From: Arcobacteraceae bacterium
GTDB taxonomy: Bacteria > Campylobacterota > Campylobacteria > Campylobacterales > Arcobacteraceae
DNA length: 38,658 bases
Direction: 5' to 3'
Assembly (NCBI GenBank): GCA_048268245.1
Contig: JBLWVX010000025.1
Coordinates: 1 to 38,658 of the forward strand
The notes beneath the pieces are model-generated. The model saw nothing but the letters and a program-made list of their open reading frames with translations. It made no database searches and had not been told where the DNA came from. Of the stretch, positions 5,518 through 33,232 are shown piece after piece; the stretch's first letter is position 1, and every line of letters begins with the position of its first letter. The translations under genes were made by a program, and so were the position numbers.

Positions 5518-6354
5518 CTAAAGAATTGATGACACAAGTAATTGTGTATATGGGTGTTGAGGATCTTCTAAAATTTGATCTGTTAATCCTCTTTCAACTA
5601 TTTGTCCATTTTTCATAACAACTGTAATGTCTGTTAGGTGCTTGATAACTCCTAAATCATGAGATACAACTACCATTGCAAAACCTATTTCATGTTGTAA
5701 TTCTTTGATTAAATCAAGAATTTTAGCTTGAACTGACAAGTCAAGTCCTGTTGTTGGTTCATCAAGTAGTAGAATCTTTGGATTACTTGATAAAGCTTTT
5801 GAAATCTGAATTCTTTGTTGCTGACCACCTGAAAAGTACTCAGGATATGCATCAATTCTACTCGTAGGAATTTCTGTTTTATCTAAAAAATATAAAGCCC
5901 TATTTCTAATCTCATCATACTTTTTATTTCCACTCATGATAACCTTTTGGGCGATATTTCCACCTGCTGAAAAGTTATAATTAAGTCCTAGTCTTGGATT
6001 TTGATAAATCATTGACATTAAAGAGTTTCTAAGATGTGATAATTCATTTAAGTTTGCATCTAAAATATTTTTTCTTTCACCATCTTTTCCTACAAAATCT
6101 TTTACAAAAATCTCACCAAGTGAAGCTTTTTGGTCTTGGTAAATAAGTTGTAGAAGTGTAGATTTACCACTACCACTCTCACCTACTATTCCTAAAACTT
6201 CTCCATTTGCAAGTGTAAGATTTACATCATTTACTCCAACAACACTTTTACAAGTAGGACAAATAGAGCTATTAAAATCTGCACCAGTTGTTTCTAAACA
6301 TTTTGGACAAAATTTTCCAAAAACCTTAGATACATTTCTCATATCTAGTATCAT
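5518..6354 (-). CDS. phnK: PhnK, C-P lyase ABC-type ATPase subunit
   Basis: GESGSGKS, SAGGNI, FSGGQQQRIQI, GLTDQILEDPQHPYTQLLVSS; N-terminal CxxC...CxxC insert. Confidence 0.95.
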   Translation of the reverse strand: MILDMRNVSKVFGKFCPKCLETTGADFNSSICPTCKSVVGVNDVNLTLANGEVLGIVGESGSGKSTLLQLIYQDQKASLGEIFVKDFVGKDGERKNILDANLNELSHLRNSLMSMIYQNPRLGLNYNFSAGGNIAQKVIMSGNKKYDEIRNRALYFLDKTEIPTSRIDAYPEYFSGGQQQRIQISKALSSNPKILLLDEPTTGLDLSVQAKILDLIKELQHEIGFAMVVVSHDLGVIKHLTDITVVMKNGQIVERGLTDQILEDPQHPYTQLLVSSIL

Positions 6355-7184
6355 TAGTTATTTCCTTGTTTTTCTTTTTGTGTATCACAATAATCTGTGT
6401 CATTACAATAATATGTTGCTTTTCCTTCATCATCATAAACTTCATCTAAGAAACTATGACTACTTCCACATCTTCCACAAACTTTTCCTTCAAAGTTTTC
6501 AACTTTAAACTCTCTATCTTCAAACTTTAAAGGTTCTACATGTGTATATGGTGGAATTGCATAAATCTTTTTTTCTCTTCCAGCTCCAAAAATTTGTAAA
6601 GCTTTACAATTATTCAACTTAGGTGTATCATACTTTGGAATTGGACTTGGATCCATTGCATATCTGTGATTCACCATCACAGGGTATCTATTTGAGATTC
6701 TTGAATCCCCGAACATAGATGTATCTTCATAAAGTAAAACCCATAGTTTAGAATAATCAGCATTTGCATGTAAAAGCTTTGCTTTTGATATGTTTGGCTC
6801 AACAGTTTCCAAAATATCAGGCATTGGAACTTGAAAAACTAAAGTTTGCCCCTCTTGTAAATCAATCTCTGGAATTCTATGTCTAGTTTGAATGATACTT
6901 GCATCAAGTGTTTTAGTTGTTGTATTCACTTTTGTAACAGATTTAATAAAATTTCTAATATTTACAGCATTTACACTTCCATCACAACCTTGGTCAATTA
7001 CTTTTAAAGTATCTTCTTCATTTATTATTGATAAAGTAACTTGTAATCCACCAGTACCCCAACCACGTGCGATTGGAAGTTCTCTTGAGGCAAATCCTAC
7101 AATATACCCAGGAATTGCAATAGCTTTTAAAATAGATCTTCTAATCTCTTTTTTTGCTTCTTCATCTAAAAATGCATATCTCAT
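6354..7184 (-). CDS. phnJ: PhnJ, C-P lyase radical SAM / glycyl-radical catalytic subunit
   Basis: RGWGTGG, KVIDQG, IQTRHRIPE, GAGREKK, C-terminal CX2CX20CX5C. Confidence 0.97.
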   Translation of the reverse strand: MRYAFLDEEAKKEIRRSILKAIAIPGYIVGFASRELPIARGWGTGGLQVTLSIINEEDTLKVIDQGCDGSVNAVNIRNFIKSVTKVNTTTKTLDASIIQTRHRIPEIDLQEGQTLVFQVPMPDILETVEPNISKAKLLHANADYSKLWVLLYEDTSMFGDSRISNRYPVMVNHRYAMDPSPIPKYDTPKLNNCKALQIFGAGREKKIYAIPPYTHVEPLKFEDREFKVENFEGKVCGRCGSSHSFLDEVYDDEGKATYYCNDTDYCDTQKEKQGNN

Positions 7185-8254
7185 TTTGCAACTCCTTTTT
7201 CTTCTTTTTTATCATCTGTATATTTTTGTGCTGATTTAAAAATCTGATAATCAGTTTGAAATGTCACATAGTGTGGTAATTTAAAGTGATTTGTCATACC
7301 AAATGATTCTATTCCATCTAAATGGTGCATAATCATGTCAAAATCAGCTGCAATAACATGCTCCCCACCAACTGAATAGTGTGTATTATAAAGTGATAAA
7401 TCAATCATAGACATAGATATAGCTTTCGTTTCATTTTTTCCAAAACAAAAGCCAAAACCAGTAGTAAGTTTTGTATCACCTTCTTCATCTTGATTAAATG
7501 TACCAACACACTCAACAGCAGTAGCTTCAATACTTCCAACTTTTACTTCATTTTTTGTAAATGGATGAGTAAAGTTAATATCTAATTCACCAATTCTTAA
7601 ATCACCAATTGTAGGGTGAATATCTCCATAACCTCTCATTGTTGTATATCCAACACATAAAAGTGAACCTGTTTCAGCTCTTGCCATCACTTGTAAAACA
7701 GCACTTCTAGGATATGGCTCAGTTGGATAACTTCTTGTGATATCCCAAGGCTTATCTTCTTTTGGAAGAATTTTAATTAAGTTATCTTCTCTTAGTGGAG
7801 TAAGAGCTGATTTTATTACATTTTGTTTTGTTGAATACTCTTCAATATTTGTTTCAACTTTTTCTAAATCAACTAATAGTTTTATTTCATAGTCATTTGA
7901 AGGACCTAATAATTGCCCTCCTTCTATATCTTTAAAAGCTGATGAAATTCTTCTTGTTAATCTCATATCATTTGTATCAATAGTTTTAGCTATACCAATT
8001 CTTTGACAAGAACTTCTATGTGCTCTTAAGAAAAAAGAAGCATTTAGTAAATCACCTGCACTTCTTTTTATAGCTTTTCCTGCAAGTTTTTTAGAATAAA
8101 GTGAACCTTCACTCATAACTCTATCAACTGAATATGTTAAACCTTCTATTAAATCTATATCATCCAGTTTTTCTGATTTATTTGTAATCTCACTATAAAA
8201 ATCAAGTGAGTTTTTAATCGCTTCCTCTCCACCTTTTATCGCATAATAAGCCAT
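7181..8254 (-). CDS. phnI: PhnI, C-P lyase complex subunit
   Basis: YAIKGGEEAI, VDRVMSEGSLY, RRISSAFKDIEGGQLLG, HFKLPHYVTFQ. Confidence 0.97.
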   Translation of the reverse strand: MAYYAIKGGEEAIKNSLDFYSEITNKSEKLDDIDLIEGLTYSVDRVMSEGSLYSKKLAGKAIKRSAGDLLNASFFLRAHRSSCQRIGIAKTIDTNDMRLTRRISSAFKDIEGGQLLGPSNDYEIKLLVDLEKVETNIEEYSTKQNVIKSALTPLREDNLIKILPKEDKPWDITRSYPTEPYPRSAVLQVMARAETGSLLCVGYTTMRGYGDIHPTIGDLRIGELDINFTHPFTKNEVKVGSIEATAVECVGTFNQDEEGDTKLTTGFGFCFGKNETKAISMSMIDLSLYNTHYSVGGEHVIAADFDMIMHHLDGIESFGMTNHFKLPHYVTFQTDYQIFKSAQKYTDDKKEEKGVAK

Positions 8255-8790
8255 TATAAAATCTCCATTTTTGTTGTTCTTGAAACTGCAATTATTTGTG
8301 CATCATCACTTAAGAAAAAAACTTCATTTCCAAGGGGATAATATGAATTCTTCTCATTAAAGAAATCTACAAAAGATTTATCTACGGGTAGACTTACATT
8401 TTTACTTCCATCAATTCCAGGACCACTTAACTTTACATCCAGACCATTGAAGTCTTTACATTTAAATATAAATGTAGATGAGTATTCAGGGTCTTTTGAA
8501 GTTCCAACTTTCCCTTTATTAAATAAATACTCATTTAGTTCATCACAAAAAATATAATCAGCATCATCAGCTTTAGTATTTTGAGCGTTCGTAATAGCTT
8601 CTATTAAACTAAACTCTTCTTTTCCTTCATAATAAAAACTTACTTCTGAATATAAAAGTGTATTTGCAATTGCTAATAAATTTGATTCAAATAAAGGTTG
8701 AATTTTTTCTACTTTTCCAGGCATAGATAAGGCATTCATCATAGCTTTAAAATTATCTCTATTTAGTTTTTCAATATCAACTGTGTTCAC
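8254..8790 (-). CDS. phnH: PhnH, C-P lyase subunit
   Basis: FKAMMNALSMPG, GTSKDPEYSST, LSGPGI, YPLG, SRTT; position between phnG and phnI. Confidence 0.9.
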   Translation of the reverse strand: MNTVDIEKLNRDNFKAMMNALSMPGKVEKIQPLFESNLLAIANTLLYSEVSFYYEGKEEFSLIEAITNAQNTKADDADYIFCDELNEYLFNKGKVGTSKDPEYSSTFIFKCKDFNGLDVKLSGPGIDGSKNVSLPVDKSFVDFFNEKNSYYPLGNEVFFLSDDAQIIAVSRTTKMEIL

Positions 8791-8798
8791 TTTTTCTC

Positions 8799-9212
8799 CT
8801 ACATTAAATCAAAAGAAACTCTAGTAGAGTTAACTTTTTGATTTGTTTTTTCTTTTTCTAAGTTATCTTGATTTTTAGCTTCTTGTAAAACTGATATAAT
8901 CTCATTTTTAAAAATATCAGCTTCGTAAGCTGCATCTATTACTGCTGTAACTAATGATAATCTTTCATTTGTATCCATAACCATAGACCAACCTTTAGTA
9001 TCATTAACTTGTACAATAGTAGAAGTCACTAGTACCTCTCCTGCATAAAAATCACTATTTGAAATTGGATCCTTTACAGGAACTAGAAGTGTTTGCTCAG
9101 TTGGAGGTGTCAATACTTGTACTTTATTTTTCTCATCAATCTTTTTATATAAATTTTCTAACTTTTCAAATTGCACTAGTTGTGCTAAATTATTAATATC
9201 TTCTCTTTTCAT
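8799..9212 (-). CDS. phnG: PhnG, C-P lyase subunit
   Basis: FYAGEVLVT, AVIDA, C-terminal STRVSF; position in operon. Confidence 0.88.
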   Translation of the reverse strand: MKREDINNLAQLVQFEKLENLYKKIDEKNKVQVLTPPTEQTLLVPVKDPISNSDFYAGEVLVTSTIVQVNDTKGWSMVMDTNERLSLVTAVIDAAYEADIFKNEIISVLQEAKNQDNLEKEKTNQKVNSTRVSFDLM

Positions 9213-9213
9213 T

Positions 9214-10071
9214 TTAAATAAACCTTTTTCTAATCATCGCACTAATTTTGTCAAGTACCCAAACAGTTAAAACAATAATGATAATAATTGAACATACATC
9301 ACTGTTTTCAAAAGCTCTCATCTTGTCAAAAAGATAAAAACCAATACCACCTGCACCAACAAACCCAAGGATTGAGGCAGCTCTTACATCACTTTCAAAT
9401 CTATACAATGCCATTGAAACAAAATGAGGCATAGTTTGAGGAAGTACTGCATAAACTAGTACTTTAAAAAAACCTGCACCTGTTGTTGTTAAAGCTTCCA
9501 CAGGACCTGGATCTATTGATTCATTTCCTTCACTTAAAAGTTTTGATAATACACCTGCTGTATGAACACCTAAGGCTAAAATACCAGCCATAGGGCCAAG
9601 ACCAACTGCACTTACAAAAATCAATGCCCAAACAATTTCATTGATTGATCTAAAAACATTTGCAACAAAGGTAGCACTTCCATATATCACTTTTTTTATG
9701 AACTCATGAATTGGAGTCTTACCTGGAATTAAAATATTTAAAATATTTCTAGAACTCATATATGATAATGGAACTGCCACTACTATAGATATAAACAGCG
9801 CAACAACTGCCATTTGAATAGTTTCTAACATTGACATAACATAAGTCATTAAATCAGCACTGTTTAAATTTGGTGGGAAAAATCCACTTCCTTCAATACT
9901 TGGATTTCCAGAAACATACTCAACCATGTAACCTGCACCATCATAAAGTGATGAGAAACTCATTTCTGTGTCATTCCAACTTTGAATTAAAACAAGTAAA
10001 AAGATTACAATTACTGCTGATTTCCCAAGTGAAAAGGGATTGCTTTTAGCCTTTAATTCTTCTACATTCAT
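9214..10071 (-). CDS. phnE: PhnE, phosphonate ABC transporter permease
   Basis: Multiple TM segments, AVGLGPMAGILAL, ESIDPGPVEAL, RFESDVRAASILGFVGAGGIG. Confidence 0.95.
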   Translation of the reverse strand: MNVEELKAKSNPFSLGKSAVIVIFLLVLIQSWNDTEMSFSSLYDGAGYMVEYVSGNPSIEGSGFFPPNLNSADLMTYVMSMLETIQMAVVALFISIVVAVPLSYMSSRNILNILIPGKTPIHEFIKKVIYGSATFVANVFRSINEIVWALIFVSAVGLGPMAGILALGVHTAGVLSKLLSEGNESIDPGPVEALTTTGAGFFKVLVYAVLPQTMPHFVSMALYRFESDVRAASILGFVGAGGIGFYLFDKMRAFENSDVCSIIIIIVLTVWVLDKISAMIRKRFI

Positions 10072-10086
10072 TTTCTATCCTTATTT

Positions 10087-10109
10087 AAGTAAGCGTAAAA
10101 CGCTTACTT
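10087..10109 (-). terminator. Intergenic stem-loop after phnD (mRNA stabiliser or partial terminator)
   Basis: Perfect 10-bp inverted repeat AAGTAAGCGT-AAA-ACGCTTACTT between phnD and phnE. Confidence 0.6.
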
Positions 10110-10117
10110 TGATTTAA

Positions 10118-10984
10118 CTATTTTTTATTTTTTAATTGTTTTTTTAATTTAATTAATTCTCTTACAGAATCATAAACAGAGTCATCACCTTTAACAAAAC
10201 CTTTATTTTTTAGTTTTTCTAAACCTTTTGGATCGTTATAAGATAAAAATGCCCCTTTTAATGCCATTTTTAAAGAAGATGGTAAATCACTTCTTGCAGC
10301 AATTGGTGCTCCTGGAATTAAATCTGAAGTCCAAATAACATTAAATTGATCTTTTTCCCAATGTTTTCCTAAACCTCTATTGAAATCTAAATTATTAGTA
10401 GACGCAGCATCAATTCTTCCAGCTTTAACTGTTAAAATAGAAGCTTCATGACCCCCTGAGTAAACTACTTTAGAGAAATATTTTTTAGGATCAATTCCAG
10501 CTTTTGAGAACATTACAGTTGGAACTAATGTTCCTGATGTAGATTGAGATGATGTGAATGCCCAAGTTTTACCTTTTAAGTCAGCAAGTGTTTTTAATCC
10601 ACTTCCTTTTTTAGTAATAATAGTACCTCTATAACCAGGAAGTCCTGATTCTCCATCAACTTCAACAACTAAAGCTTCAGCATTAGCTCTTTTTGCAGCT
10701 TCTACATAAGATTTTGGTCCTAAATAAGCTACATCAATGTGTTTATGCTGCATACCTGTAATTACACCTGTGTAATCTCCAGCTAATTTCATCTCAACTT
10801 TAATACCTAATGATTTTGATAAATAATCAGTTAATGGTCCAAAGTTTTCTTTCATTGAAGTTGAACCAGCTACAGGTATTACACCAAAAGTAATTTTTTC
10901 AGGCCATTTTTCTTGTGCAAACATTGAAGTTGATGCTAATCCTAAAGCTATAGAAGCTACTGTAAGTTTTTTAATTAATTTCAT
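10118..10984 (-). CDS. phnD: PhnD, phosphonate ABC transporter periplasmic binding protein
   Basis: Signal peptide, DYTGVITGM, STSGTLVP, GGHEAS, WTSDLIPG. Confidence 0.95.
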   Translation of the reverse strand: MKLIKKLTVASIALGLASTSMFAQEKWPEKITFGVIPVAGSTSMKENFGPLTDYLSKSLGIKVEMKLAGDYTGVITGMQHKHIDVAYLGPKSYVEAAKRANAEALVVEVDGESGLPGYRGTIITKKGSGLKTLADLKGKTWAFTSSQSTSGTLVPTVMFSKAGIDPKKYFSKVVYSGGHEASILTVKAGRIDAASTNNLDFNRGLGKHWEKDQFNVIWTSDLIPGAPIAARSDLPSSLKMALKGAFLSYNDPKGLEKLKNKGFVKGDDSVYDSVRELIKLKKQLKNKK

Positions 10985-11014
10985 TTCATTTCCTAATTTT
11001 CTTAATTTTTTACA

Positions 11015-11749
11015 CTAGTTATTTGTGTAGATTTTTTCAACTAACTTTTCAGTTAGCAACTCACTCTTATCGTCAAAGACTATTTCCCCATCGTTTACTC
11101 CAACAATTCGGTCACAATACTCTTTGGCATACTCTAAATGATGAAGGTTAGCAATTACAGTTACCCCGTAAGTTTTGTTTACCTTCCTTAAAATCTCCAT
11201 AACCTTCTTTGCACTTTTTGGATCAAGAGCAGATACAGGTTCATCAGCTAAAATAATCTTTGGTTCAGCGGCTAAAGCCCTAGCAATTGCAACTCTTTGT
11301 CTTTGGCCTCCCGAAAGTTCATCACATCTTTTTAAAGAGTGTTTAGTAATATCAACAATATCCATATACTCTTTTGCTTTTTCCAACTCCTTTTTCTTAT
11401 ATAATTTAATAATTGCTCTTGTAAGAGGTATCTCTTTTAGCATTCCACTTACTACATTATCAAGTACAGAAAGTCTATCAACTAGGTTATATCCTTGAAA
11501 TATAACTCCCACTTGTTCTCTTAATTTAACTAGATTCTTTTTTTTGATATTTTTTAAATCAAAATTTAGAACTTCAAATTTTCCATCAAATACTTTTATT
11601 CCACCAGTAACTGACATTAAAAGTGTTGATTTTCCTGCACCACTAGGTCCTATAATTCCTATGAATTCCCCTTCTTTTACTTTGAAATTCACATCTTTTA
11701 AGATTTTTTCTTTTTTATAACCTAATGTTAGGTTTTTCATCTTTATCAC
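11015..11749 (-). CDS. phnC: PhnC, phosphonate ABC transporter ATPase
   Basis: GPSGAGKS, FQGYNLVDRLSVLDNV, LSGGQRQRVAIARA, ADEPVSALDP, NLH. Confidence 0.95.
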   Translation of the reverse strand: MIKMKNLTLGYKKEKILKDVNFKVKEGEFIGIIGPSGAGKSTLLMSVTGGIKVFDGKFEVLNFDLKNIKKKNLVKLREQVGVIFQGYNLVDRLSVLDNVVSGMLKEIPLTRAIIKLYKKKELEKAKEYMDIVDITKHSLKRCDELSGGQRQRVAIARALAAEPKIILADEPVSALDPKSAKKVMEILRKVNKTYGVTVIANLHHLEYAKEYCDRIVGVNDGEIVFDDKSELLTEKLVEKIYTNN

Positions 11750-23945: not shown

Positions 23946-24114
23946 TTAATTCTCCAAAAAACAACATCAAAGTTATTTTAATATTATGATTTATAATATC
24001 GCTTTTAATATAAAGTTTTGATAAATTATTTTATCTTTTTATTTGTTTTAAAAGAATCCATATTATAATAATTCTTTTATGTAATTTGTATTAGTATTAT
24101 ATAAAGGTTTAATC

Positions 24115-25353
24115 ATGTTTAATAAAGAATTTTTAAAAAATTTAACTATATTATATGTTGAAGATGAAGAGATAGCAAGAAAGCAATTAGAAAAAGTATT
24201 AAATAGACTTTTCAAAGAAGTAATAGTTGCAAAAAATGGTTTAGAAGGGTTTGAAAAATATCTAGAAGATAGACTACTTGATAAACCAAAGATTTCTTTG
24301 ATACTAAGTGATATAAATATGCCTCAATTAAATGGTATTGAAATGCTTGAAAAAATCAGAGAAAAAAACGATTCAATTCCTATAATTTTTACAACAGCGA
24401 GGTCTGAAACAGAATATCTTTTAAAAGCAATATCTTTGAATGCTTCTTATTATGCTTTAAAACCTGTAGATATTGAAGATGTGATTGAGAAAATACAAAA
24501 AGTATGTGAAAAAAAATATTTTGAAAAGTTAATACAAGAAAAAAACACTGAATTAAAAGAGTACTTAAAAGTAATTGATAATGTTGCTACTATTTTTAAA
24601 ATGACCTCAAAAGGTGATATAACTTACTCAAATAGACTTTTTAGTAATACCTTAGCATATGAGAAGGAAGAGTTATTACAAAAAAATTTTCACTCACTAA
24701 TTAGTAAGAATATTGATAAAAATATACTAATTGATTTATGGAAAACAGTCAAAACTAATAAAACATGGAAAAAAGATTTAAAGTTTGAAGACAAAGATGG
24801 TGAAGTTTTATATATAAAGTCAACTATATTTAAAACAGCAAATGAAAATGAGGAGTATATCTCTATTGGTTTTATTTCAACAGAAGAAGTAAATCAGAAA
24901 AGAGAGTTTCATAAAAAGCTTATCACAAATATAAAAGAAAAAAATCTTGAAGTTGCTAAATCATCAAATAATCTAAAATCCTATGAAAATAGAATAACTT
25001 ATTTAGAAAATGAACTAAAAGTTAACAAACAAAAATATTTAGATCAAAGAACTCAAATAGAATATTATGAAAATGAAATGTTAGGTTTAGATGAAAAAGT
25101 TATTAAAAATTTAAAAGTTAAAAATAGTGAAATTGAAGAGCTTAAGGCTATTATTTCAAATAAAAAAAAAGAAAGAGAAAAAGGCATAAAAAAATACAAT
25201 GAACTATCAAAAGAGCTTGTAAATGCTAAAGCAGAGATAGAAAAAATGCAAGAGAAGATTGAAATAAAACAAACTAGAATAGATGATCTTCTTAATCTAG
25301 TAGAGGTTAGAGAAGCCCAGTTAAGAAAATACGATGAGAGTTTTGAAAAGTAA
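24115..25353 (+). CDS. Response regulator with PAS-like domain and long C-terminal coiled coil
   Basis: LYVEDE, SDINMPQLNG, TTA and KP receiver motifs; K/E-rich heptad tail. Confidence 0.88.
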   Translation: MFNKEFLKNLTILYVEDEEIARKQLEKVLNRLFKEVIVAKNGLEGFEKYLEDRLLDKPKISLILSDINMPQLNGIEMLEKIREKNDSIPIIFTTARSETEYLLKAISLNASYYALKPVDIEDVIEKIQKVCEKKYFEKLIQEKNTELKEYLKVIDNVATIFKMTSKGDITYSNRLFSNTLAYEKEELLQKNFHSLISKNIDKNILIDLWKTVKTNKTWKKDLKFEDKDGEVLYIKSTIFKTANENEEYISIGFISTEEVNQKREFHKKLITNIKEKNLEVAKSSNNLKSYENRITYLENELKVNKQKYLDQRTQIEYYENEMLGLDEKVIKNLKVKNSEIEELKAIISNKKKEREKGIKKYNELSKELVNAKAEIEKMQEKIEIKQTRIDDLLNLVEVREAQLRKYDESFEK

Positions 25354-25366
25354 GCTTTATGGCTTA

Positions 25367-25393
25367 CTTTTAGGAACTACGATTATGAATTTT
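25367..25393 (+). repeat. Left att core (27-bp direct repeat)
   Basis: CTTTTAGGAACTACGATTATGAATTTT, identical to 32127-32153. Confidence 0.93.
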
Positions 25394-25416
25394 ACTAAAA
25401 TAAATTAAAAAACTAT

Positions 25417-25442
25417 AAAACACCTTGTTTTAAGACTTCTAA
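25417..25442 (+). repeat. Inverted copy of the integrase upstream region
   Basis: AAAACACCTTG-TTTTAAGACTTCTAA versus the reverse complement of 30939-30965, AAAACACCTTGATTTTAATACTTCTAA (1 gap, 1 mismatch). Confidence 0.8.
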
Positions 25443-25480
25443 GTATTAATATTTATATCAGCCTCATAATATATTTTCTT

Positions 25481-25501
25481 TTTTGGAACACTTTTGGAAC
25501 A
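25481..25501 (+). repeat. Putative integrase arm-type sites, left end
   Basis: Tandem TTTTGGAACA-C-TTTTGGAACA (11-bp period); the same 10-mer occurs at 32072-32081. Confidence 0.7.
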
Positions 25502-25577
25502 TCAACTAATATTATTTAATTAAAAACATGATAACATTATTCTTTTATATTAATAAATATTATATATTTGGAGTAAT

Positions 25578-25784
25578 ATGTCAGATAAAGTTAGAGTTTA
25601 TGAAATAGCAGATGAAGTTGGGGCAAGTAGCCAGGATGTAATTTTAAAATCAAGAAATTTAGGATTTGAATTAAAATCTCCTCAATCTGCAGTTTCCTAT
25701 ATTGATGCTGAAAAAATTGCAAACTATATATTAAGCGGTAAAAGCAACTATCCTTCTGGTATGATACAAAAAATGCAGAAATAG
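25578..25784 (+). CDS. Translation initiation factor IF-2 N-terminal-like domain; probable 5' part of a frameshifted fusion with the downstream ATPase-TOPRIM
   Basis: MSDKVRVYEIADEVGASSQDVILKSRNLGFELKSPQSAVS matches the IF2_N pattern of Campylobacterota IF-2 (recalled); GGAG RBS at 25570-25573. Confidence 0.75.
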   Translation: MSDKVRVYEIADEVGASSQDVILKSRNLGFELKSPQSAVSYIDAEKIANYILSGKSNYPSGMIQKMQK

Positions 25785-26125
25785 ATTATGATAGAGCTAC
25801 TAACAATAAATCAATTAAAAAAAACTATATAGTTAGTAAACGAATAAATAGGAAAGGCTCATCTGGACTAAAATTTATAAAAAAGAAAGACTCTAATAGT
25901 TCCATAAAAAAAGAAGAAGAAAATAAAAATAATTCAGAAGATGAATTAATAAACAAAGAAATAGAAAATGATAAAATTAAACTTTTAAAAAAGATAGAAG
26001 AAAAAAAACTTAAAGTATTCAATAATGATAGTAATAAAAAACTAGAAAAAGAGAAAAATAATTTTGATAAAAGAATTGACTTACCACTTAATTCGTATCC
26101 TAAGATAACTATAGAAATTTATAAC

Positions 26126-27613
26126 TTGAAAACAATATCTTACTTAAAGTGGGATTTACAAGAAGAAGCAGGTGTTTATGGAATAATTGGTGAAAATGGT
26201 TCGGGGAAATCATCATTATTAATCAGTATAGCAAAATTAATTGAACCTAACATTTTCCATCATGAATTAACAGGTTCTAAATATTATGAAAACACAAAAA
26301 TTATTTATACAATAAACGATAATATTTTTACATGGATTAAAAATAAAAGCACTAATAACAATTGGAGACAAAGTACAAATGATAAAATAAATATGCCTAA
26401 TAAATTAAAAGGCTTTTTTGAGTCTTCAATTCTTACTGGCACTAGATTTGATAAAATTGACGAGTACATAAAAGATAAACTTGAATATATAATAGAAGAT
26501 AATATAGATGAAGCAAGTGACTTTATAAAAAATTCTATGAACTATATTCTTTTTGGAGATAAAGACTCATTTTATAAGTTTAATAATTTGTATAAAATTA
26601 CTGCCGAGAGAAGAAGAAAAATAAATAATAACCTAATCACAAAAACATATTCTTACTATGCTTTAAATTTAAAAGATGATGAATATATAAAGGAACATTT
26701 GTTTAGTACAGGAGAATATTTTTTACTTAAGTTATTAAAATTTATAGATAATTTTAAAAATAATGGAGGTAGTGTAATTCCTGCTCTTATAATAATAGAT
26801 GAAGTTGAACTTTCTTTACATCCACTAGCACAAACAAGATTAACGAAACTATTAAATGAATATGCAAAAAAATTTAACTTGATAATTTTATTTGCTTCTC
26901 ATTCATTACATATTCTAGAAAATATTCCAGCAAAAAATACTTTTTTTATTCAAAGGAATATCATGAATAAACATTCTATTTCTAACCCTATACATTTAGG
27001 ATATTTAACATCTAAACTTTTTAAACATCAGTTCTATGATAAAGTAATATTAGTTGAGGATGAATTAGCAAAACAATATATAGAACTTACTTTAAATGAT
27101 CTTCCTCATCATAAAAATTTATCAATTGGAGTTATAATTGTTGGAGGTAGTAATCAAGTTGTAAAGACAGCCGTTGAGAATTATCATGAAAAATTCTATG
27201 GCGATGCAGATGTTATGGTCTCATTAGATGAGGATAGAAAAAAAGATGTTTATTCTGAAAAGAGATATATTAAATGGTATCAACATATTCCTGTGAAGAA
27301 TAATATTGAGAACTATGTTTCTAATCTTATAAAGAATGATGATTATAAATTTATCGAATTTATAGAAAGTCTTTTAATTAAAAAGTCTTTTTATGATTTA
27401 AGTATTCAAACAACAAAACAAAAAACAGGATTTACCACGTTAGTAGCAGAGATAGCCAATAATACGCTGGGACGTTTTTATAATCATAAAGACAATGCAA
27501 AAAGTAATGCGCGAAAAAAAATTGTAGAATATGTATATGAAGAATATAAAACTACATCAGAACAAAATGTACTTGTAGAGGAAATACTAAGTTTACTTAA
27601 CTATGATAAATAA
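26126..27613 (+). CDS. OLD-like ABC/AAA_21 ATPase fused to a TOPRIM nuclease domain (frame open from 25742)
   Basis: Walker A GENGSGKS, signature FSTGE, Walker B IIIDEVELSLHP, H-loop ASHS; TOPRIM motifs VILVED, IVGG, LDED. Confidence 0.85.
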   Translation: MKTISYLKWDLQEEAGVYGIIGENGSGKSSLLISIAKLIEPNIFHHELTGSKYYENTKIIYTINDNIFTWIKNKSTNNNWRQSTNDKINMPNKLKGFFESSILTGTRFDKIDEYIKDKLEYIIEDNIDEASDFIKNSMNYILFGDKDSFYKFNNLYKITAERRRKINNNLITKTYSYYALNLKDDEYIKEHLFSTGEYFLLKLLKFIDNFKNNGGSVIPALIIIDEVELSLHPLAQTRLTKLLNEYAKKFNLIILFASHSLHILENIPAKNTFFIQRNIMNKHSISNPIHLGYLTSKLFKHQFYDKVILVEDELAKQYIELTLNDLPHHKNLSIGVIIVGGSNQVVKTAVENYHEKFYGDADVMVSLDEDRKKDVYSEKRYIKWYQHIPVKNNIENYVSNLIKNDDYKFIEFIESLLIKKSFYDLSIQTTKQKTGFTTLVAEIANNTLGRFYNHKDNAKSNARKKIVEYVYEEYKTTSEQNVLVEEILSLLNYDK

Positions 27614-28685
27614 AATAGTAAATAAATATTTTTCATATTTTAATATAATTCAAAATCCTGACCTAAAATATATAAAGAATTATAGATTAAAAAAAGAATA
27701 TATTACAAATACTTTTAATCTATACTTCAAAAATATTACCAATGAACAAATATTTTCACAAGATGAAATAGAGCTATTAAAAGATTGGTTTATAGATGTT
27801 GCAAAAGCTCATAAAGATTTATATCAAGATTTACCATATAACAAAAAACTAAAATCTGAAGCAATTTTATTCAATGGTCAAATAGTTTTAAAAGAATGCT
27901 TTAATCTTTTACATTTAATTTATAGATATCATTACGCTTATAAATTAAGACATGAATATAAGGATGAAATTAAAGATACTTTATTTAAAATAAGTTCAGA
28001 TAAAAGGGCTTTAAAGAATAAATACAATAAGTTTGATAAAATCTCTAAAAATAAAAGATTTAATAGAAGATATAGAGCTAAATTTGTTTTATTAAAAAGA
28101 GTTCTAAACATTTTAATTAAAGATGAATATTCAGAAAGAATAAAACAGTATCTGTTTTTTATATCATTAAACTTTAAAGCTATTAACTGGGATAAGGTAT
28201 TAGATACAGAAGATGAGAAAACCAAAGAAATCTTTTTTGAATCACTAGACTTTTTTATGTATTTTAATCTTTCAGAAACAAAAATTAAAAATTCTCATAT
28301 GATTTTAGTTTATACATTTTTAACTCAAAGGTTACAAATAAATGAACCTGATTCATTGAACCTTACTAATAGACTTTCAAATGATATTTTATATGATATG
28401 GATAGTAGAAGAGACTATTTTAAAAGAGAACTATCAAAAAATATTTATTTGTACAACATATTTCATTATTTACCAATATTTCTACATTATAATGAAAAAG
28501 ACACCCCTCCTTACACAAAAGAAGAAAAAGATAAACTTGCTCATTCTATAAAAAAACAAGCAACAATTGCAGATAAAAAGTTTAAAGATTGTGATTCATC
28601 ACTATTTATTGAAACTATTGAAAACTCCCATATAAATTATATTAGACAAGAACTAATATTTCTTTATGAATCAAAAAACGAATAA
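27603..28685 (+). CDS. Hypothetical protein, 360 aa, basic and probably helical
   Basis: Long ORF overlapping the ATPase-TOPRIM end by 11 bp; no motif recognised. Confidence 0.75.
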   Translation: MINKIVNKYFSYFNIIQNPDLKYIKNYRLKKEYITNTFNLYFKNITNEQIFSQDEIELLKDWFIDVAKAHKDLYQDLPYNKKLKSEAILFNGQIVLKECFNLLHLIYRYHYAYKLRHEYKDEIKDTLFKISSDKRALKNKYNKFDKISKNKRFNRRYRAKFVLLKRVLNILIKDEYSERIKQYLFFISLNFKAINWDKVLDTEDEKTKEIFFESLDFFMYFNLSETKIKNSHMILVYTFLTQRLQINEPDSLNLTNRLSNDILYDMDSRRDYFKRELSKNIYLYNIFHYLPIFLHYNEKDTPPYTKEEKDKLAHSIKKQATIADKKFKDCDSSLFIETIENSHINYIRQELIFLYESKNE

Positions 28686-28808
28686 AATCGACATAAAAAA
28701 ACAAAAAATATTGATTTCCAAACTTTTTCTTTTTTACTAAACTTCCCCTATCGATATCGAAATTAAATCAAAGAGCTCTTTGTAAATAAAAATTACAAAG
28801 GATAAAAA

Positions 28809-29066
28809 ATGTTAAAAATCAATGGAATACTACTTAATATAATCGATAAAAGTAAGTATAAAAATAAAGATGGTTTAGAAATAGATACAAAAGGAAAAGT
28901 TCAAGTTCTAGTGGAAAATAAAAGAGCTAATGGCTCAATTGTAAAAGAACTTCATACTATTTCAATACCTGATGAAAAAATACCTTTATACAAAGATAAA
29001 GTTAATAAAGAAGTTGAAGTACCAGTAGGAATTATTTCAGAAAAATATTCATTCTATGGTGTCTAA
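28809..29066 (+). CDS. Small putative OB-fold single-stranded DNA-binding protein
   Basis: 85 aa, beta-strand-like pattern, AAGGA RBS, directly upstream of the origin hairpins and Rep gene. Function inferred from size and position. Confidence 0.55.
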   Translation: MLKINGILLNIIDKSKYKNKDGLEIDTKGKVQVLVENKRANGSIVKELHTISIPDEKIPLYKDKVNKEVEVPVGIISEKYSFYGV

Positions 29067-29111
29067 GAATAAGAAAAGAACACAGAGAGCCTTCTGTGTT
29101 TTTTCTTATTC
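29067..29111. repeat. Long inverted repeat (19-bp stem, one bulge) between the ssb-like gene and rep
   Basis: GAATAAGAAAAGAACACAGA-GAGCCT-TCTGTGTTTTTTCTTATTC. Confidence 0.8.
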
Positions 29112-29135
29112 GTGACAATAAAATAAATTTATGTT

Positions 29136-29157
29136 CGGGGTTTATAGTAATACCCCG
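29136..29157 (+). other. Candidate double-strand origin / oriT nick-site hairpin
   Basis: CGGGGT-TTATAGTAAT-ACCCCG: GC-rich stem with TAATA at the 3' side of the loop, as in pT181 dso and Tn916/ICEBs1 oriT hairpins; ends 26 bp before the rep start. Confidence 0.6.
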
Positions 29158-29183
29158 TTCTATACGTCATAAAGAGGAAATAA

Positions 29184-30533
29184 ATGAGTAAAGTAAAAAA
29201 GATATTTGGTATTGATTCACTTTATTACTTCTGTGAATCAAATGAAAATTATGATGATTTATATCTTGAAATATTAGACCAAGTAGAAGAAATAAAAGGT
29301 AAGTTTGAAAAAAAAGATGTTGAGTTTGAGAACAATGACATTATTATAAATATAAACGATACACCTCTAAACTTCTTAGGCAAAGCAGAAGGCTTTCATT
29401 GGTTCAAAGATATAAATGAGTTCTTTAAAATAGGTTTTAAAGATAGATATAAAAACAGAGGTTTAAATGATATTAGAGTGCAACTTCAAGGTGTAGGAAT
29501 TTATACAATGGGCATTAAGTCACTAGTTGAGTTTATTAATGTTCATTTATTAAAAGAATATACAACTGGATTCAATCCAATTACAAGAGCAGATTTAAAC
29601 TGTTTTATTCAATATGATTTTAGCTTTGTAACAAAAGAGATGTTTAGTACAAGAAAAAGACAATATTCGACAATTAGTGAAATTGGTAATGCTTCAAAAG
29701 TGCAAACCTTATATGTAGGAAAAGAGCCTTTTAAACTAAGACTATATAACAAAAAAGAAGAATTAAAAAAATCAAAGAAAAAAGATTTAATGTATGAATA
29801 CTTTTTAAATAATGACTTTGATATTGAAGATGAGATTTTTAATGTTGAGTTTGAGTTACATAGAGCGTATTTAAAAACTTTTAATATCTTTACTATTGAA
29901 GATTTATTCTCTAATGCAGTAAATCTATTTAAAACTTCTATGGAAGATATTAGACTAATAGATATTAACTCTTTATCAAATAAAGCAATTGAACATAACA
30001 ACAAACATAGAGCTAATACTTTAGCTATTTGGGAAGAAATAAAAAGTGAATATTACTTAGAAGATTTTTTACAAATACAATTACCACTAAGTAGAGTTAA
30101 AAGAGCTATTTCAATATATGATGATTATAAGTTCAAATTAGAGTATATAGCTTTAATTAGAAAAGCATTTATAAACAATCTAAACATAGATTCCAATTTT
30201 TTAGATGAACTATACAAAGATGCAAAAGAATCATTAAATAAAACTACTACAAATAAAGAGTTAAAGAAAAGATATACAGAGGTAGAGATTATAAATAAAA
30301 ATGGTTCAAAAGAGAATTTAAGATTATTAGAAGATGGAAATTTAATTAAACCTCTAAGAACTGAAACAGTATCTAAATTACAAGATTATGACTTACTTGT
30401 TTACCTTGATAAGACAAGAGAGAAGAAACATCTATCTTCAAGAGATAAGCATATTTACTATGTAGCTTTAAAAGAAGCAACAAAAAGAAATTTAGTATTA
30501 GATATTACACCAAATGAGGCACAAAGTTTTTGA
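29184..30533 (+). CDS. Rep_trans-like rolling-circle replication initiator / MOB_T-type relaxase
   Basis: GIDSLY, ITRADL, TLYVG...LRLYNKKEE (candidate catalytic Tyr), NVEFELHR; GAGG RBS. Confidence 0.8.
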   Translation: MSKVKKIFGIDSLYYFCESNENYDDLYLEILDQVEEIKGKFEKKDVEFENNDIIININDTPLNFLGKAEGFHWFKDINEFFKIGFKDRYKNRGLNDIRVQLQGVGIYTMGIKSLVEFINVHLLKEYTTGFNPITRADLNCFIQYDFSFVTKEMFSTRKRQYSTISEIGNASKVQTLYVGKEPFKLRLYNKKEELKKSKKKDLMYEYFLNNDFDIEDEIFNVEFELHRAYLKTFNIFTIEDLFSNAVNLFKTSMEDIRLIDINSLSNKAIEHNNKHRANTLAIWEEIKSEYYLEDFLQIQLPLSRVKRAISIYDDYKFKLEYIALIRKAFINNLNIDSNFLDELYKDAKESLNKTTTNKELKKRYTEVEIINKNGSKENLRLLEDGNLIKPLRTETVSKLQDYDLLVYLDKTREKKHLSSRDKHIYYVALKEATKRNLVLDITPNEAQSF

Positions 30534-30611
30534 TACTTTTTTAAAAAGTATATACAGCTTTGAGGGATTTACTCCCTCCCTTAAACAGATAATCAAAGGA
30601 GAATTAAAACA

Positions 30612-30917
30612 ATGGATATACCATTTGAGAATTTAGAAAAAATAAATGAAGTATTAGAAAAATTAAATATATTAGAACAAAAGATTAATAGTGAAAAGAG
30701 ATGGTTAAATACAAAAGAAGCATCTTATTATCTTGGATATTCAAAAGAGCATATCCATAAACTAAAAGACAACTATTTGATTGAGGGTAAACACTACTAT
30801 AAAAAAGCTGGTAGAGTTTTATTTGATAAGTTAGAATTAGATAACTGGGTTATGCCTACATTAACAAAAATGAATGCAAAAGAAATAGCTAATAATGTTA
30901 TTAAAGATTTAATATGA
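30612..30917 (+). CDS. Excisionase-like helix-turn-helix protein (HTH_17 type)
   Basis: WLNTKEASYYLGYSKEHIHKL...GRVLFDKLELDNW; immediately upstream of the integrase. Confidence 0.85.
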   Translation: MDIPFENLEKINEVLEKLNILEQKINSEKRWLNTKEASYYLGYSKEHIHKLKDNYLIEGKHYYKKAGRVLFDKLELDNWVMPTLTKMNAKEIANNVIKDLI

Positions 30918-30981
30918 GTTATAGTAAAATTAAGTCGTTTAGAAGTATTAAAATCAAGGTGTTTTTCAAAAGGAGAAACAC

Positions 30982-32055
30982 ATGGTTAAAATGACACAAC
31001 CTAAACTTTACACTAGAGGGAAAAAACTTTGGGTAAGGTTTAGTTTAGATGGTAAAGTGATTAAGAAATCACTAAATATAGAAGATAGTAAAGCTAATAG
31101 AAAATTAGCTGAAACGCAAATAATTCCACAAATGCTTTTAAAGGTACATAGTGGAGAGTTCTTTGAAAACAAAACTGTTCCAACTGTTAAAGAAATGATT
31201 GATATTAGTTTGAAGATGCATTCAAGTAGTAGAAAAGAACAAACACGTATTAATTATGAGTATGTAATTAAATATCATATATTGCCCTATTTTGGAAAGA
31301 AGAAAATAACTTCACTAAAAGCTAGTGAACTTACATTATGGCAAAATGATTTATTAAAAAAGTTTTCTCCTAAATATGTATCTAATATTAGAGTTGTATT
31401 TCATGGCATTTTACAAGATGCCTTTAGAGATGAAATCATTAATAAAAATCCTTTAACTTTAATAAAATCCCCTTCTTCTGAACCCCTACGAAAGGTTAAA
31501 CCTTTTTCAAAAGATGAAATATTTAGTATATTAAATACTTTGCCTTCAAAAGTAAGAGCTTATTTTGCAATAGGTTTTTTTACAGGTATGAGAACTGGAG
31601 AGATTTTAGCCTTAAAATGGGAAAATATTGATTTTGAGAATAAAACAATTTATGTAAGAGCAACTAGAAATCGTGGTAAGGATAGTACTCCTAAAACAAA
31701 ATCTAGTATTAGAGATGTTGATATAATAAATGTTTTATTACCCTATTTAAATAGTCATTTAAAATATAAAACTGATTCAGAATATCTTTTTAATACAAAG
31801 TTTAAAAAGCCATTTCATAGTGCAAATAAACTATCAATTGTTTATTGGAAAAAAGCTTTAAAAGAATTAGGTATCGAATATAGAAATTTGTATCAAATGA
31901 GGCATACTTTTGCTTCATTAATGATTTCTAATGGAGAAGATATTTTATGGGTATCAAATATGCTAGGTCACAAAAATGCAAATATAACTTTATCATTTTA
32001 TGCAAAATACATAAAAAATGATGAAAAGACTAGAGGTAGCTATTTTAATGCATAG
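30982..32055 (+). CDS. int: Tyrosine recombinase / phage-type integrase
   Basis: GMRTGEILAL, PKTKSS, YQMRHTFAS, LGHKNANITLSFYAK catalytic motifs; N-terminal arm-binding-like region; AAGGAG RBS. Confidence 0.95.
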   Translation: MVKMTQPKLYTRGKKLWVRFSLDGKVIKKSLNIEDSKANRKLAETQIIPQMLLKVHSGEFFENKTVPTVKEMIDISLKMHSSSRKEQTRINYEYVIKYHILPYFGKKKITSLKASELTLWQNDLLKKFSPKYVSNIRVVFHGILQDAFRDEIINKNPLTLIKSPSSEPLRKVKPFSKDEIFSILNTLPSKVRAYFAIGFFTGMRTGEILALKWENIDFENKTIYVRATRNRGKDSTPKTKSSIRDVDIINVLLPYLNSHLKYKTDSEYLFNTKFKKPFHSANKLSIVYWKKALKELGIEYRNLYQMRHTFASLMISNGEDILWVSNMLGHKNANITLSFYAKYIKNDEKTRGSYFNA

Positions 32056-32060
32056 AACAA

Positions 32061-32081
32061 CACTGGTACAATTTTGGAACA
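32061..32081 (+). repeat. Putative integrase arm-type sites, right end
   Basis: CACTGGTACA-A-TTTTGGAACA, same 11-bp period and orientation as 25481-25501. Confidence 0.65.
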
Positions 32082-32113
32082 GTAAAAAATAAATACTTTA
32101 AATAGCCCTATTT

Positions 32114-33232
32114 TTAGGCTATTTTGCTTTTAGGAACTACGATTATGAATTTTGCTCCATATTTCCCATTTTGAATTTTTAAATCCCCTCCAAAACTACT
32201 TTTTATAACAAGCTTCACCATATAAAGACCTGTTCCTGTACCATAATCTTTTGTTGTATAGTAAGGGTCAAAAATTTTATCGAGATTGTCTTCTTTTATT
32301 CCACCTGCATTATCTTCAATGATAACTATACTATATTTATCTTTTGTCATAGTAGTTATTGCTATTTGCCTTTTTTGTATTTGTCTTTCTATAAAGGCAT
32401 CTTTAGCATTTGTGATTAAATTTAAAAAAACTTGTTCTAGTTCAGTTTCAACTCCAAAAGCCGTTTCATCTCCAATATGAACTTTTAAATCAATATTATT
32501 AGTTGTCAACTGTTTATCAAGTAGTTTGATAGTTTTTTCCATTGCAGATTTAATTGTAAAAGTTTTCTTGCTTTTGTTAGGGTTAAAGAAGTTTATAAAA
32601 TCATTTATAGTTTCACTCATAAATACAATCTGTTTTTTTGTATTTTTATCAAACTCTTCTATAAAGTTGTCATCAATTTCCCTATGTTTATATGAATCTT
32701 TTACATCAGAACAGTATAAAGACATATTATTTAAAGGTTGTTTTAACTGATGGGCTATAACTCCTATCATTTCACCCATAGTTGCCATTTTTGATTGATG
32801 TATTAATAACTCTTCTTTTTTTGAAAGCTCACTTGTATCTCTTTTTTTATCTTCAAATAAATCAATATAAACTTTTAATTTAGCTATTAATAGATTTTCA
32901 TCAATTGGCTTTGAAATATACTCAACTGCACCTATTTCATAACCTTTCTTTTGATAAGCATCTTTATCATAAATACCTGTAATAAATATAATTGGTATAT
33001 TTTTTGTTGAATCTATTGACTTTAAATACTGTGCGAATTGAAAACCATCAATATCTGGCATTTGGATATCACTTAAAATCAAATCTACTTTTATTTTCAT
33101 AAGTAGTTCCATTGCCTCAGTAGCACTTAATGCACTATATATATCAACATCAAAGTTATCTTTAATTATAAGTTTTAAAGAGTAGATATTATCTTGAACA
33201 TCATCTACTATTAATACTGAAAATTTACTCAT
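32114..33232 (-). CDS. Hybrid response regulator-histidine kinase (integration target)
   Basis: LIVDD, SDIQMPDIDG, KP receiver motifs; IAHQLKQPL, NAKDA, DNAGGI, FDPYYTTK, GTGTGL. Confidence 0.92.
   Translation of the reverse strand: MSKFSVLIVDDVQDNIYSLKLIIKDNFDVDIYSALSATEAMELLMKIKVDLILSDIQMPDIDGFQFAQYLKSIDSTKNIPIIFITGIYDKDAYQKKGYEIGAVEYISKPIDENLLIAKLKVYIDLFEDKKRDTSELSKKEELLIHQSKMATMGEMIGVIAHQLKQPLNNMSLYCSDVKDSYKHREIDDNFIEEFDKNTKKQIVFMSETINDFINFFNPNKSKKTFTIKSAMEKTIKLLDKQLTTNNIDLKVHIGDETAFGVETELEQVFLNLITNAKDAFIERQIQKRQIAITTMTKDKYSIVIIEDNAGGIKEDNLDKIFDPYYTTKDYGTGTGLYMVKLVIKSSFGGDLKIQNGKYGAKFIIVVPKSKIA
32127..32153 (+). repeat. Right att core (27-bp direct repeat) inside the last codons of the hybrid kinase gene
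   Basis: Identical to 25367-25393; encodes KFIIVVPK on the minus strand. Confidence 0.93.

Follow-up and report, generated by a model that had tools for sequence, protein, structure and literature searches.

A frame-broken gene of an Arcobacteraceae bacterium that joins the N-terminal domain of IF-2 to a retron-effector-like ATPase-TOPRIM protein, a candidate anti-phage nuclease

A stretch of 38,658 nucleotides (nt) from an Arcobacteraceae bacterium (contig JBLWVX010000025.1 of assembly GCA_048268245.1, positions 1-38,658; hereafter, the window) contains, at positions 25578-27613 of the forward strand, a gene split by a frame change that appears to encode the N-terminal domain of translation initiation factor IF-2 fused, via a linker, to an ABC ATPase and a TOPRIM domain. 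By sequence comparison, the two open reading frames (ORFs) predicted in this region, one of 68 amino acids (aa) and the other, encoding the ATPase, with an apparent TTG start codon, are a single gene with one frame change within 25742-25781; the N-terminus of its product is IF-2-derived and, in two genomes, matched to the resident IF-2; and the ATPase-TOPRIM part, which resembles type I-B retron effectors most closely, has a predicted OLD-type fold with intact catalytic motifs. The interpretation that we favor, with an estimated probability of about 0.45 that includes the premise of a defense function, is that this is a single-protein, abortive-infection-type anti-phage nuclease of the OLD family, in which an IF-2 mimic would serve as bait and replace the reverse transcriptase (RT) and multicopy single-stranded DNA (msDNA) as the input. 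The genome under study is denoted G000, and other genomes, loci and homologous proteins are denoted by G, L and P numbers, respectively.

The first half of the broken gene (25578-25784, +) encodes the IF-2 N-terminal domain (residues 1-56) followed by an out-of-frame tail that ends with a TAG stop codon. A GGAG ribosome-binding site, read from the sequence, lies 4 nt ahead of its ATG (25570-25573, +), as noticed in a preliminary description of this DNA, and the proposed identity of the 68-aa ORF was borne out by a match to the Pfam domain IF2_N (PF04760; E = 3.4e-10, 40 bits, cut-off 25.3). In the ATPase frame, the last stop codon is at 25739-25741, and the frame is open from 25742; the preliminary description was right that the 128 codons between this position and the TTG at 26126 include no stop and no ATG, and GTG and TTG are missing from them as well. 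Its contention that TTG 26126 is not a real start and cuts the first strand of the ABC domain also holds, in that homology to the family begins at 26102 (KITIEIYNLK), 24 nt upstream of this TTG, in the alignment with the PADLOC profile ATPase-Toprim_I-B, which starts at residue 120 of the frame read from 25745, and unfused relatives begin just ahead of the same strand (MKEIKITIENLK). Both frames are open only in the zone 25742-25781 (+), which must hold the frame change and contains a run of six A (25768-25773). One added base anywhere in this zone gives a frame of 678 codons, in agreement with the protein of about 678 aa that had been predicted; the figure comes from arithmetic.

That the fusion is a natural one and that the copy in the window is broken follows from the continuous proteins with the IF2_N, ABC-ATPase and TOPRIM domains, which account for 39 of the 79 database homologs (E <= 0.001, drawn from 8000 scored candidates). 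These proteins, the search for which the preliminary description had proposed, are single chains of 555-736 aa that carry both PF04760 and ABC-ATPase families. The best homolog is 68% identical and covers 96% of the query, and in 13 fetched loci, the ATPase gene begins with a counterpart of the 68-aa ORF. The 646-aa homolog from Aliarcobacter butzleri (P0019) has no other name in the NCBI database than 'translation initiation factor IF-2 N-terminal domain-containing protein'.

From 25742 to 27610, the window copy contains no internal stop codon, and all catalytic motifs are intact. Unless the break arose during assembly, the nuclease copy of this strain is probably not active. An error in assembly or sequencing, with an intact 678-codon gene in the organism, would be compatible with this preservation of the rest of the gene and with the location of the A homopolymer inside the break zone, but six bases make for a short run, and breaks that appear to be independent occur at other positions in two of the 13 fetched fused loci, namely, near 1195-1210, at the end of the linker, in L042 and inside the ATPase start in L007 (both are metagenome assemblies, themselves possibly in error). 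On balance, we consider such an error somewhat unlikely. None of the 7 sequencing runs listed contained more than 0.11 of the sequence words, no RNA run with this sequence was listed, and among the contigs of 3 runs, compared at 80% likeness, there was no near-identical piece across 25742-25781. Given that two of the 13 fetched fused loci are independently frame-broken, loss of such fused genes is apparently common. A conserved programmed frameshift was considered as well and ruled out, because the breaks in L042 and L007 sit elsewhere and the homologs are in frame. The same observations, together with the absence of a canonical X_XXY_YYZ heptamer, make it extremely unlikely that a programmed -1 slip on A_AAA (25769-25772) yields a 68-aa IF-2-domain peptide along with some full-length protein, even if a lysine tRNA that moved by -1 on AAA (25770-25772) would, in principle, enter the ATPase frame at 25772.

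The N-terminal domain is closely similar to that of the IF-2 encoded in the same genome (infB, contig C2), with 44 of the 56 residues identical (79%) in the comparison that the preliminary description had called for. In a sequence search, the N-terminal part of the family profile also matches the N-domain of Thermus thermophilus IF-2 (4b44, E = 2e-5). The likeness extends across the break into the K/E/N-rich linker of the second frame (25742-26101, +), which contains the IF-2-type motif GLKFIKK (25865-25885): KRRGLKIIKKKK is found near residue 150 of the resident IF-2, and SGLKFIKKK in the linker of the window. Thus, the IF-2 motif cited in the preliminary description proved to be genuine, being present in both the resident infB and the linker, and, in the form PK(R/K)RGL(K/V)(I/F)(I/V)KK, in the IF-2 of all 21 family genomes examined (L002, L022-L041), at residues 123-173. 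The pattern GL[KR][IVLF][IV][KR]K, which was written post hoc, after both copies had been seen, has two matches among the ORFs of at least 100 aa in G000 (903,014 residues), one in infB and the other in this linker. Positions 1 to 109-168 of the family profile match infB in 100 of the 184 family genomes, with E values of 1e-26 to 1e-30 and about 100 bits, vs 48-51 bits for the 53-position Pfam IF2_N domain on the resident infB, a gap to which low-complexity K/E content may contribute. In close relatives of the window protein, the IF-2 domain likewise leads into an IF-2-like linker with the motif GLKI(V/I)KK. In the structural model of P0002, the linker is disordered, with predicted local distance difference test (pLDDT) values below 50 at residues 67-135 and 143-168.

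The fused protein thus shares with IF-2 both the N-terminal Domain I and the linker motif, whereas the GTPase and the C-terminal fMet-tRNA-binding domains of IF-2 are missing and an ABC ATPase and a TOPRIM domain are present instead. The fused gene is no infB paralog, and the real infB is located on contig C2. As a separate observation on IF-2 itself, the motif PK(R/K)RGL(K/V)(I/F)(I/V)KK is an invariant short element inside the otherwise variable, disordered N-terminal linker of IF-2 in this bacterial family; we know of no function assigned to it. Another protein of G000 with some likeness to this domain is a predicted 271-aa membrane protein (L004, contig C33, ORF 1414-2229, -), the C-terminal part of which weakly matches IF2_N (E = 1.3e-4; 26.6 bits when neighboring stretches are included).

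The relationships among the IF-2-like domains differ from those among the nuclease parts of the same proteins. All 35 fused domains compared are closer to some IF-2 than to the fused domain of the window; for example, the domain of P0002 shares 53 of 56 positions with the IF-2 of a family genome but only 39 of 56 with the window domain. In a Campylobacteraceae metagenome-assembled genome (G184, locus L007), the fused domain is identical to the resident IF-2 in 43 of 54 positions (80%), compared with 42% identity to the IF-2 and 43% to the fused domain of G000, and these two sequences from G184 are sisters with support of 99/96 in a 59-row tree of the 56-column domain, in which most forks besides this pair are unresolved. 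A single clade of the 37 fused domains is rejected by the approximately unbiased test (p 0.0015, log-likelihood difference 86). By contrast, in the 93-row tree of the ATPase-TOPRIM part (quick search, midpoint root, support from the Shimodaira-Hasegawa-like approximate likelihood ratio test (SH-aLRT) only), one clade of 44 rows (SH-aLRT 95) includes 43 with IF-2-derived N-termini, and overall, 44 of the 93 rows are IF-2-bearing, with 3 changes. The combination of an essentially single fused ATPase clade with a rejected domain clade suggests that the module was captured repeatedly, or replaced from the resident infB, and kept IF-2-like. Between the fused domain and the resident infB, the nonsynonymous distance (dN) is 0.15 and the synonymous distance (dS) is 1.07 in G000, and in G184, dN is 0.13 with dS saturated. 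Because synonymous sites are saturated and dN is low, the match to the resident IF-2 is old and maintained by purifying selection and does not reflect recent conversion.

The ABC ATPase domain of the window protein (26102-27049, +), delimited by the PADLOC alignment and by the invariant columns of the alignment of 36 fused homologs (A3; the 39 minus three near-duplicates), contains the Walker A motif GENGSGKS (26189-26212, +), the ABC signature STGEYF (26705-26722, +), the Walker B motif IIIDEVE (26789-26809, +) and the H-loop ASHS (26894-26905, +). The TOPRIM domain together with the C-terminal helices (27050-27613, +; stop codon 27611-27613) includes motif IV, LVEDE (27050-27064, +), and the DxD motif within LDEDR (27224-27238, +). 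Walker A and B, the signature, the H-loop, the TOPRIM glutamate and DxD (E500 and D557/D559 in the numbering of P0002) are invariant in all 36 aligned fused homologs and are present in the window. The match to the PADLOC profile ATPase-Toprim_I-B (PDLC02914) has an E value of 9.7e-50 and spans positions 2-430 of 443. An AlphaFold model of P0002, computed with alignment A3 (mean pLDDT 77.6), is confident for the IF-2 domain (residues 1-60) and for the ATPase-TOPRIM body. When this model was compared with the PDB using Foldseek, the matches were to GajA (8tjy_A, 8e-11; 8x5i_D, 1.5e-10), Thermus OLD (6p74, 1e-9), Retron-Eco8 (9lp9_B, 1.7e-8) and the retron I-A PtuA (9n69); the alignments to GajA and to Thermus OLD span 578-646 columns.

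Thus, of the kinship with OLD, GajA and PARIS that had been proposed at the outset, the OLD-family fold stands, as the Foldseek matches to GajA and Thermus OLD indicate, whereas the closest known relatives are not PARIS but type I-B retron effectors (PADLOC E values of 9.7e-50 vs 4.9e-9 for AriA). Gabija GajA, a Class 2 OLD protein, is the top structural match to the fused protein, but the PADLOC match to GajA is weak and partial (3.8e-9), and Pfam and PADLOC scans of the flanking ORFs detected no helicase family that would correspond to a GajB-type helicase. PARIS, the AriB component of which is a tRNA nuclease, shares the logic of an ABC ATPase combined with a TOPRIM domain but distributes it between two proteins, whereas here it is contained in one chain; the AriA match covers part of the ATPase only, and there is no AriB model among the 25 best of the 56 PADLOC matches for the window ORFs. 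Class 1 OLD proteins (phage P2 Old, Vibrio cholerae OLD, Escherichia coli YbjD) resemble the present case in being encoded by stand-alone genes without a fixed partner and in having the same fold. As described in a review (PMC10568477), they lack an added host-derived N-terminal domain, in contrast to the IF2_N domain and linker of the fused family, and by both profile and tree, this family is closer to retron effectors than to the classical OLD proteins.

In the type I-B retron effectors, which give the best of the PADLOC matches just mentioned, the ABC ATPase and TOPRIM domains are joined in one chain as they are here. TOPRIM motif IV of the window protein begins with ED, like that of the I-B1 subtype (EDxxL) and unlike that of I-B2 (EG), as given by Mestre et al. 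(PMC7736814). In published classifications, retron effectors make up the Class 3 OLD proteins, next to the single-gene Class 1 (PMC10568477), and the I-B1 type, with the effector downstream of the RT, corresponds to Class 3B, whereas Retron-Eco8 belongs to I-B2, or Class 3A (PMC10568477, PMC7736814). In the same bacterial family, more distant cousins of 454-470 aa are encoded directly downstream of an RT-sized ORF (L014-L021), that is, in the I-B1, or Class 3B, arrangement; in both loci scanned, L016 and L017, the upstream ORF is a PF00078 RT, and the genomes G045 and G120 have such pairs of RT and ATPase genes. These eight RT-linked rows form a clade with a support of 100 in the ATPase tree, and the 44-row fused clade is adjoined by stand-alone proteins of about 480 aa, for example, that of L013, which is located in a glycosyltransferase cluster. 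The difference from type I-B retrons, which consist of an RT and a noncoding RNA (ncRNA) in addition to the effector, is that here the IF-2 domain is part of the same polypeptide, in a single-gene unit without a conserved neighbor.

No match to the RT family RVT_1 was detected on the window contig, where the ORFs neighboring the gene also lack an RT match, and an Rfam scan of 24000-33000 gave no match at E <= 0.1, with the caveat that Rfam may not model this retron type. A retron at this locus was accordingly rejected, there being no RT on the contig and no ncRNA by Rfam in that interval. Two RT genes exist elsewhere in G000, on contigs C12 (L005) and C15 (L006), with RVT_1 E values of 1e-18 and 1e-17, respectively; these possibly belong to retrons.

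The fused form is rare and patchily distributed. Matches to the ATPase-TOPRIM family were detected in 10 of the 184 family genomes and in 6 of the 401 class genomes (E <= 1e-45), and among all of these, only G000 has the fused form; a pattern scan of genome contigs yielded five loci, of which only L007 is fused. Among 1.84 billion cluster representatives, the family profile retrieved 268 proteins at E <= 1e-30; in the best 150 of these, IF2_N is recognized by Pfam in 17 (9 known already, plus 8 of the 20 that were scanned, 4 of these being fragments), and P0024 has a diverged copy of the domain. Viral contigs contained a single, distant, unfused relative. The preliminary description knew of no system with this architecture, and we likewise found no account of a fusion of IF2_N with an OLD-family nuclease in the literature within the scope of our search, outside of which were most subscription papers and all supplements.

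For the stand-alone class of OLD proteins, the way in which infection is sensed has yet to be explained, and a review notes that no cellular single-gene OLD conferring broad defense was known to it (PMC10568477). In the present case, the input module is readable from the sequence: it is the N-terminus of the host's own IF-2, placed where close cousins use the retron RT-msDNA. In Retron-Eco8, as reported in a preprint, the RT, msDNA and OLD protein form a 4:4:4 complex that is triggered by phage single-stranded DNA-binding protein and cuts double-stranded DNA (bioRxiv 10.64898/2025.12.04.692459). Under the reading that we favor, the IF-2 look-alike would take over the input role that the RT-msDNA has in type I-B retrons and would serve as bait to a phage factor directed at the N-terminus of IF-2 or its docking site; engagement of the bait would then let the ATPase license cleavage of nucleic acid by the TOPRIM domain. 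By analogy, the substrate could be DNA, as for Retron-Eco8, or tRNA, as for P2 Old, an ATP-activated tRNase that causes abortive infection (PMC12445682). Any link of the nuclease to ribosomes, initiator tRNA or tRNA cleavage would be by analogy only. If the bait model is right, it would represent a new sensing principle for OLD nucleases and would reveal that phages attack the IF-2 N-domain or the coupling of IF-2 with NusA, which is undescribed in the literature searched; the fused family illustrates how retron effectors might be re-wired to protein sensors.

A more specific version of this model, which we regard as tentative and on the unlikely side, is that the gene encodes a bacterial integrated decoy, that is, a mobile OLD nuclease with a lineage-matched copy of the IF-2 N-terminus in exchange for the retron RT-msDNA sensor, which fires when a phage protein grabs or modifies this copy. 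The likeness is to plant NLR immune receptors with integrated domains (NLR-ID), such as RRS1, in which an immune protein carries a copy of a host target for sensing; an integrated decoy has also been discussed as a hypothesis for an NLR-related bacterial protein, bNACHT11 (PMC11702601). Those receptors are built on an NLR/STAND chassis, whereas here the chassis would be an OLD nuclease; the host origin of the module is visible in the sequence, and its role as bait is hypothetical.

Several points weigh against the bait interpretation or weaken its basis. Function, substrate and trigger are all predictions. Only two genomes permit a comparison between the fused domain and the IF-2 of its own host, the metagenomic homologs having no assigned hosts, and, on the substitution data, saturation of dS cannot tell repeated capture from conversion or parallel constraint. 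Fused P0053 falls outside the main fused clade, and P0031 lies inside it without a visible IF-2 part. The window copy as well as two of the 13 fetched fused loci are frame-broken. The profile checks suggested in the preliminary description were only partly successful: IF2_N scores above its cut-off, but on the window copy AAA_15 (30.6 bits) and AAA_21 (25.2 bits) remain just below theirs, and no TOPRIM family of Pfam matches; homologs exceed the ATPase family cut-offs, for example, with 51.7 bits for AAA_21 in P0095. The linker motif occurs in strict form in 7 of 35 fused homologs, as GLKIV in P0002 and P0013-P0015 and as K[VI][KR]I[IV]TKN in P0016-P0018, with looser forms, KIKIV and LRIVSKK, in further ones, and the fused forms of 555-605 aa have at most 4 linker residues; because of the rarity of the strict motif and the near absence of a linker in the short forms, only the 56-aa domain is general to the fused family. 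To our knowledge, no phage factor that targets the IF-2 N-terminus has been described. Furthermore, the sequence patterns expected from a decoy and from a tether are identical.

With a tether, the IF-2 look-alike would dock the nuclease at the site bound by the IF-2 N-terminus and thereby determine both the target and the place of cleavage, and a different signal would activate it via the ATPase. In E. coli, this site would be NusA's C-terminal region on transcribing RNA polymerase, and 30S subunits are also possible; Domain I of E. coli IF-2 (N1, residues 1-50, plus strands 57-90) binds NusA directly in pull-down and in-cell crosslinking experiments (PMC12297416). A module that has to keep binding a host partner would be consistent with both the similarity to the resident IF-2 and the strong purifying selection, the captured piece includes the conserved IF-2 linker motif in close relatives, and there are OLD relatives that act on translation components, P2 Old, which cuts tRNA, being one (PMC12445682). 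However, the resident NusA has 390 aa and lacks acidic-repeat (AR) domains after KH2, whereas in E. coli, deletion of AR1-AR2 abolishes the binding, and according to the same study, conservation is lacking both in the N-terminus of IF-2 and in the C-terminus of NusA (PMC12297416). In Campylobacterota, any partner of the IF-2 N-domain would be putative, and many of the fused forms lack the linker. A complex prediction for the resident NusA (390 aa) with residues 1-58 of the window IF-2 domain scored 0.00, which speaks neither for nor against a contact. We view a tether as unlikely and as less probable than bait.

The broken gene is part of a small integrase island. A 33-nt direct repeat, with the left copy at 25364-25396 and the right copy at 32124-32156 (94% identical, spacing 6760 nt), is likely an attachment-site duplication at the island edge; the right copy falls within the 3'-terminal part of a response-regulator/kinase gene (32114-33232, -). 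The repeats bracket 6.76 kb that contain, after the broken gene and all on the plus strand, a 360-aa backbone gene of unassigned function (27603-28685), which overlaps the end of the nuclease gene by 11 nt; an 85-aa gene, also unassigned (28809-29066); a 449-aa backbone gene, possibly a replication initiator (29184-30533); a 101-aa excisionase-like gene (30612-30917; excisionase matches to PHROG 66 and 539, with E values of 1.7e-4 and 4.4e-3); and a tyrosine integrase gene (30982-32055; Pfam Phage_integrase, E = 6.1e-23; PHROG 1, E = 7.3e-67). The 360-aa protein has no family match, no usable match in the protein atlas and 14 homologs, all unnamed. For the 85-aa gene, L052 is the only locus with a homolog next to another fused gene (34% identity, E = 8e-14).

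An island in genome G069 (L122, contig C42, 19000-33000) shares this backbone: its 360-aa, 449-aa, excisionase and integrase genes are 48-57% identical to those of the window, with 54% for the 449-aa gene, the G069 counterpart of which has a weak match to Rep_trans (E = 3.8e-4, below the cut-off), and 57% for the excisionase-like gene. In place of the nuclease gene, the G069 island carries a gene for a 1047-aa STAND protein with DUF4062 and NB-ARC domains. Together, the two islands (window 25364-32156 and L122) represent a family of small integrative islands with a common backbone and an exchangeable cargo slot. Because G069 keeps the backbone without the fused gene, the nuclease gene belongs to the variable cargo and has no partner in the 360-aa gene; a partnership between the two was rejected also because no counterpart of the 360-aa gene is found beside 13 other fused loci.

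The neighbors of the fused relatives vary between loci, and there is no conserved partner gene. In four loci, 5 of the 21 proteins encoded next to fused genes match PADLOC models: Shedu SduA (3e-148), directly upstream of the fused gene, in L046; a type IIG restriction enzyme (2.5e-141) and PDC-S71 (9e-141) in L045; a WYL protein in L043; and, in L044, an HNH-HIT protein, near which an Mrr-like nuclease is also encoded. These neighborhoods bear on the premise of defense itself. The IF-2 domain at the N-terminus, the naming of an NCBI homolog solely after that domain, and an archaeal OLD-family ATPase to which a cell-cycle role is reportedly ascribed would fit a housekeeping or regulatory, translation-linked ATPase that merely shares the OLD fold. 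Against a role of this kind, the fused form is present in only one of the 184 family genomes, the gene sits on a mobile island in a slot held by a STAND NTPase in the sister island, genes for Shedu, PDC-S71 and restriction adjoin those of relatives, retron effectors are its closest kin, and frame-broken copies are frequent. We consider a function outside defense very unlikely.

A few further observations concern relatives of the fused gene and their surroundings. Within the same ATPase-TOPRIM group, P0102, P0105, P0172 and P0063 have other N-terminal extensions, of 80-165 aa, and scans recognized no family in the extensions of these four proteins or in those of P0108 and P0059; it may be that sensor modules are generally accommodated at the N-terminus of these effectors. 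A conserved gene of about 377 aa lies ahead of the unfused cousins in L054 (4945-7500) and L055 (3054-5645); its L054 copy has no Pfam match, and it could be a diverged RT or another partner. In L043, the fused gene and the WYL regulator are followed by a block of four genes (5543-11337), none of which matches PADLOC at 1e-5; the last, which runs off the contig, encodes a 1140-aa P-loop protein, and the block may be an undescribed defense operon. In L048 (6728-9779), the fused gene adjoins a gene for an integron-type integrase (Phage_integrase and Phage_int_SAM_4 domains) and may itself be an integron cassette.

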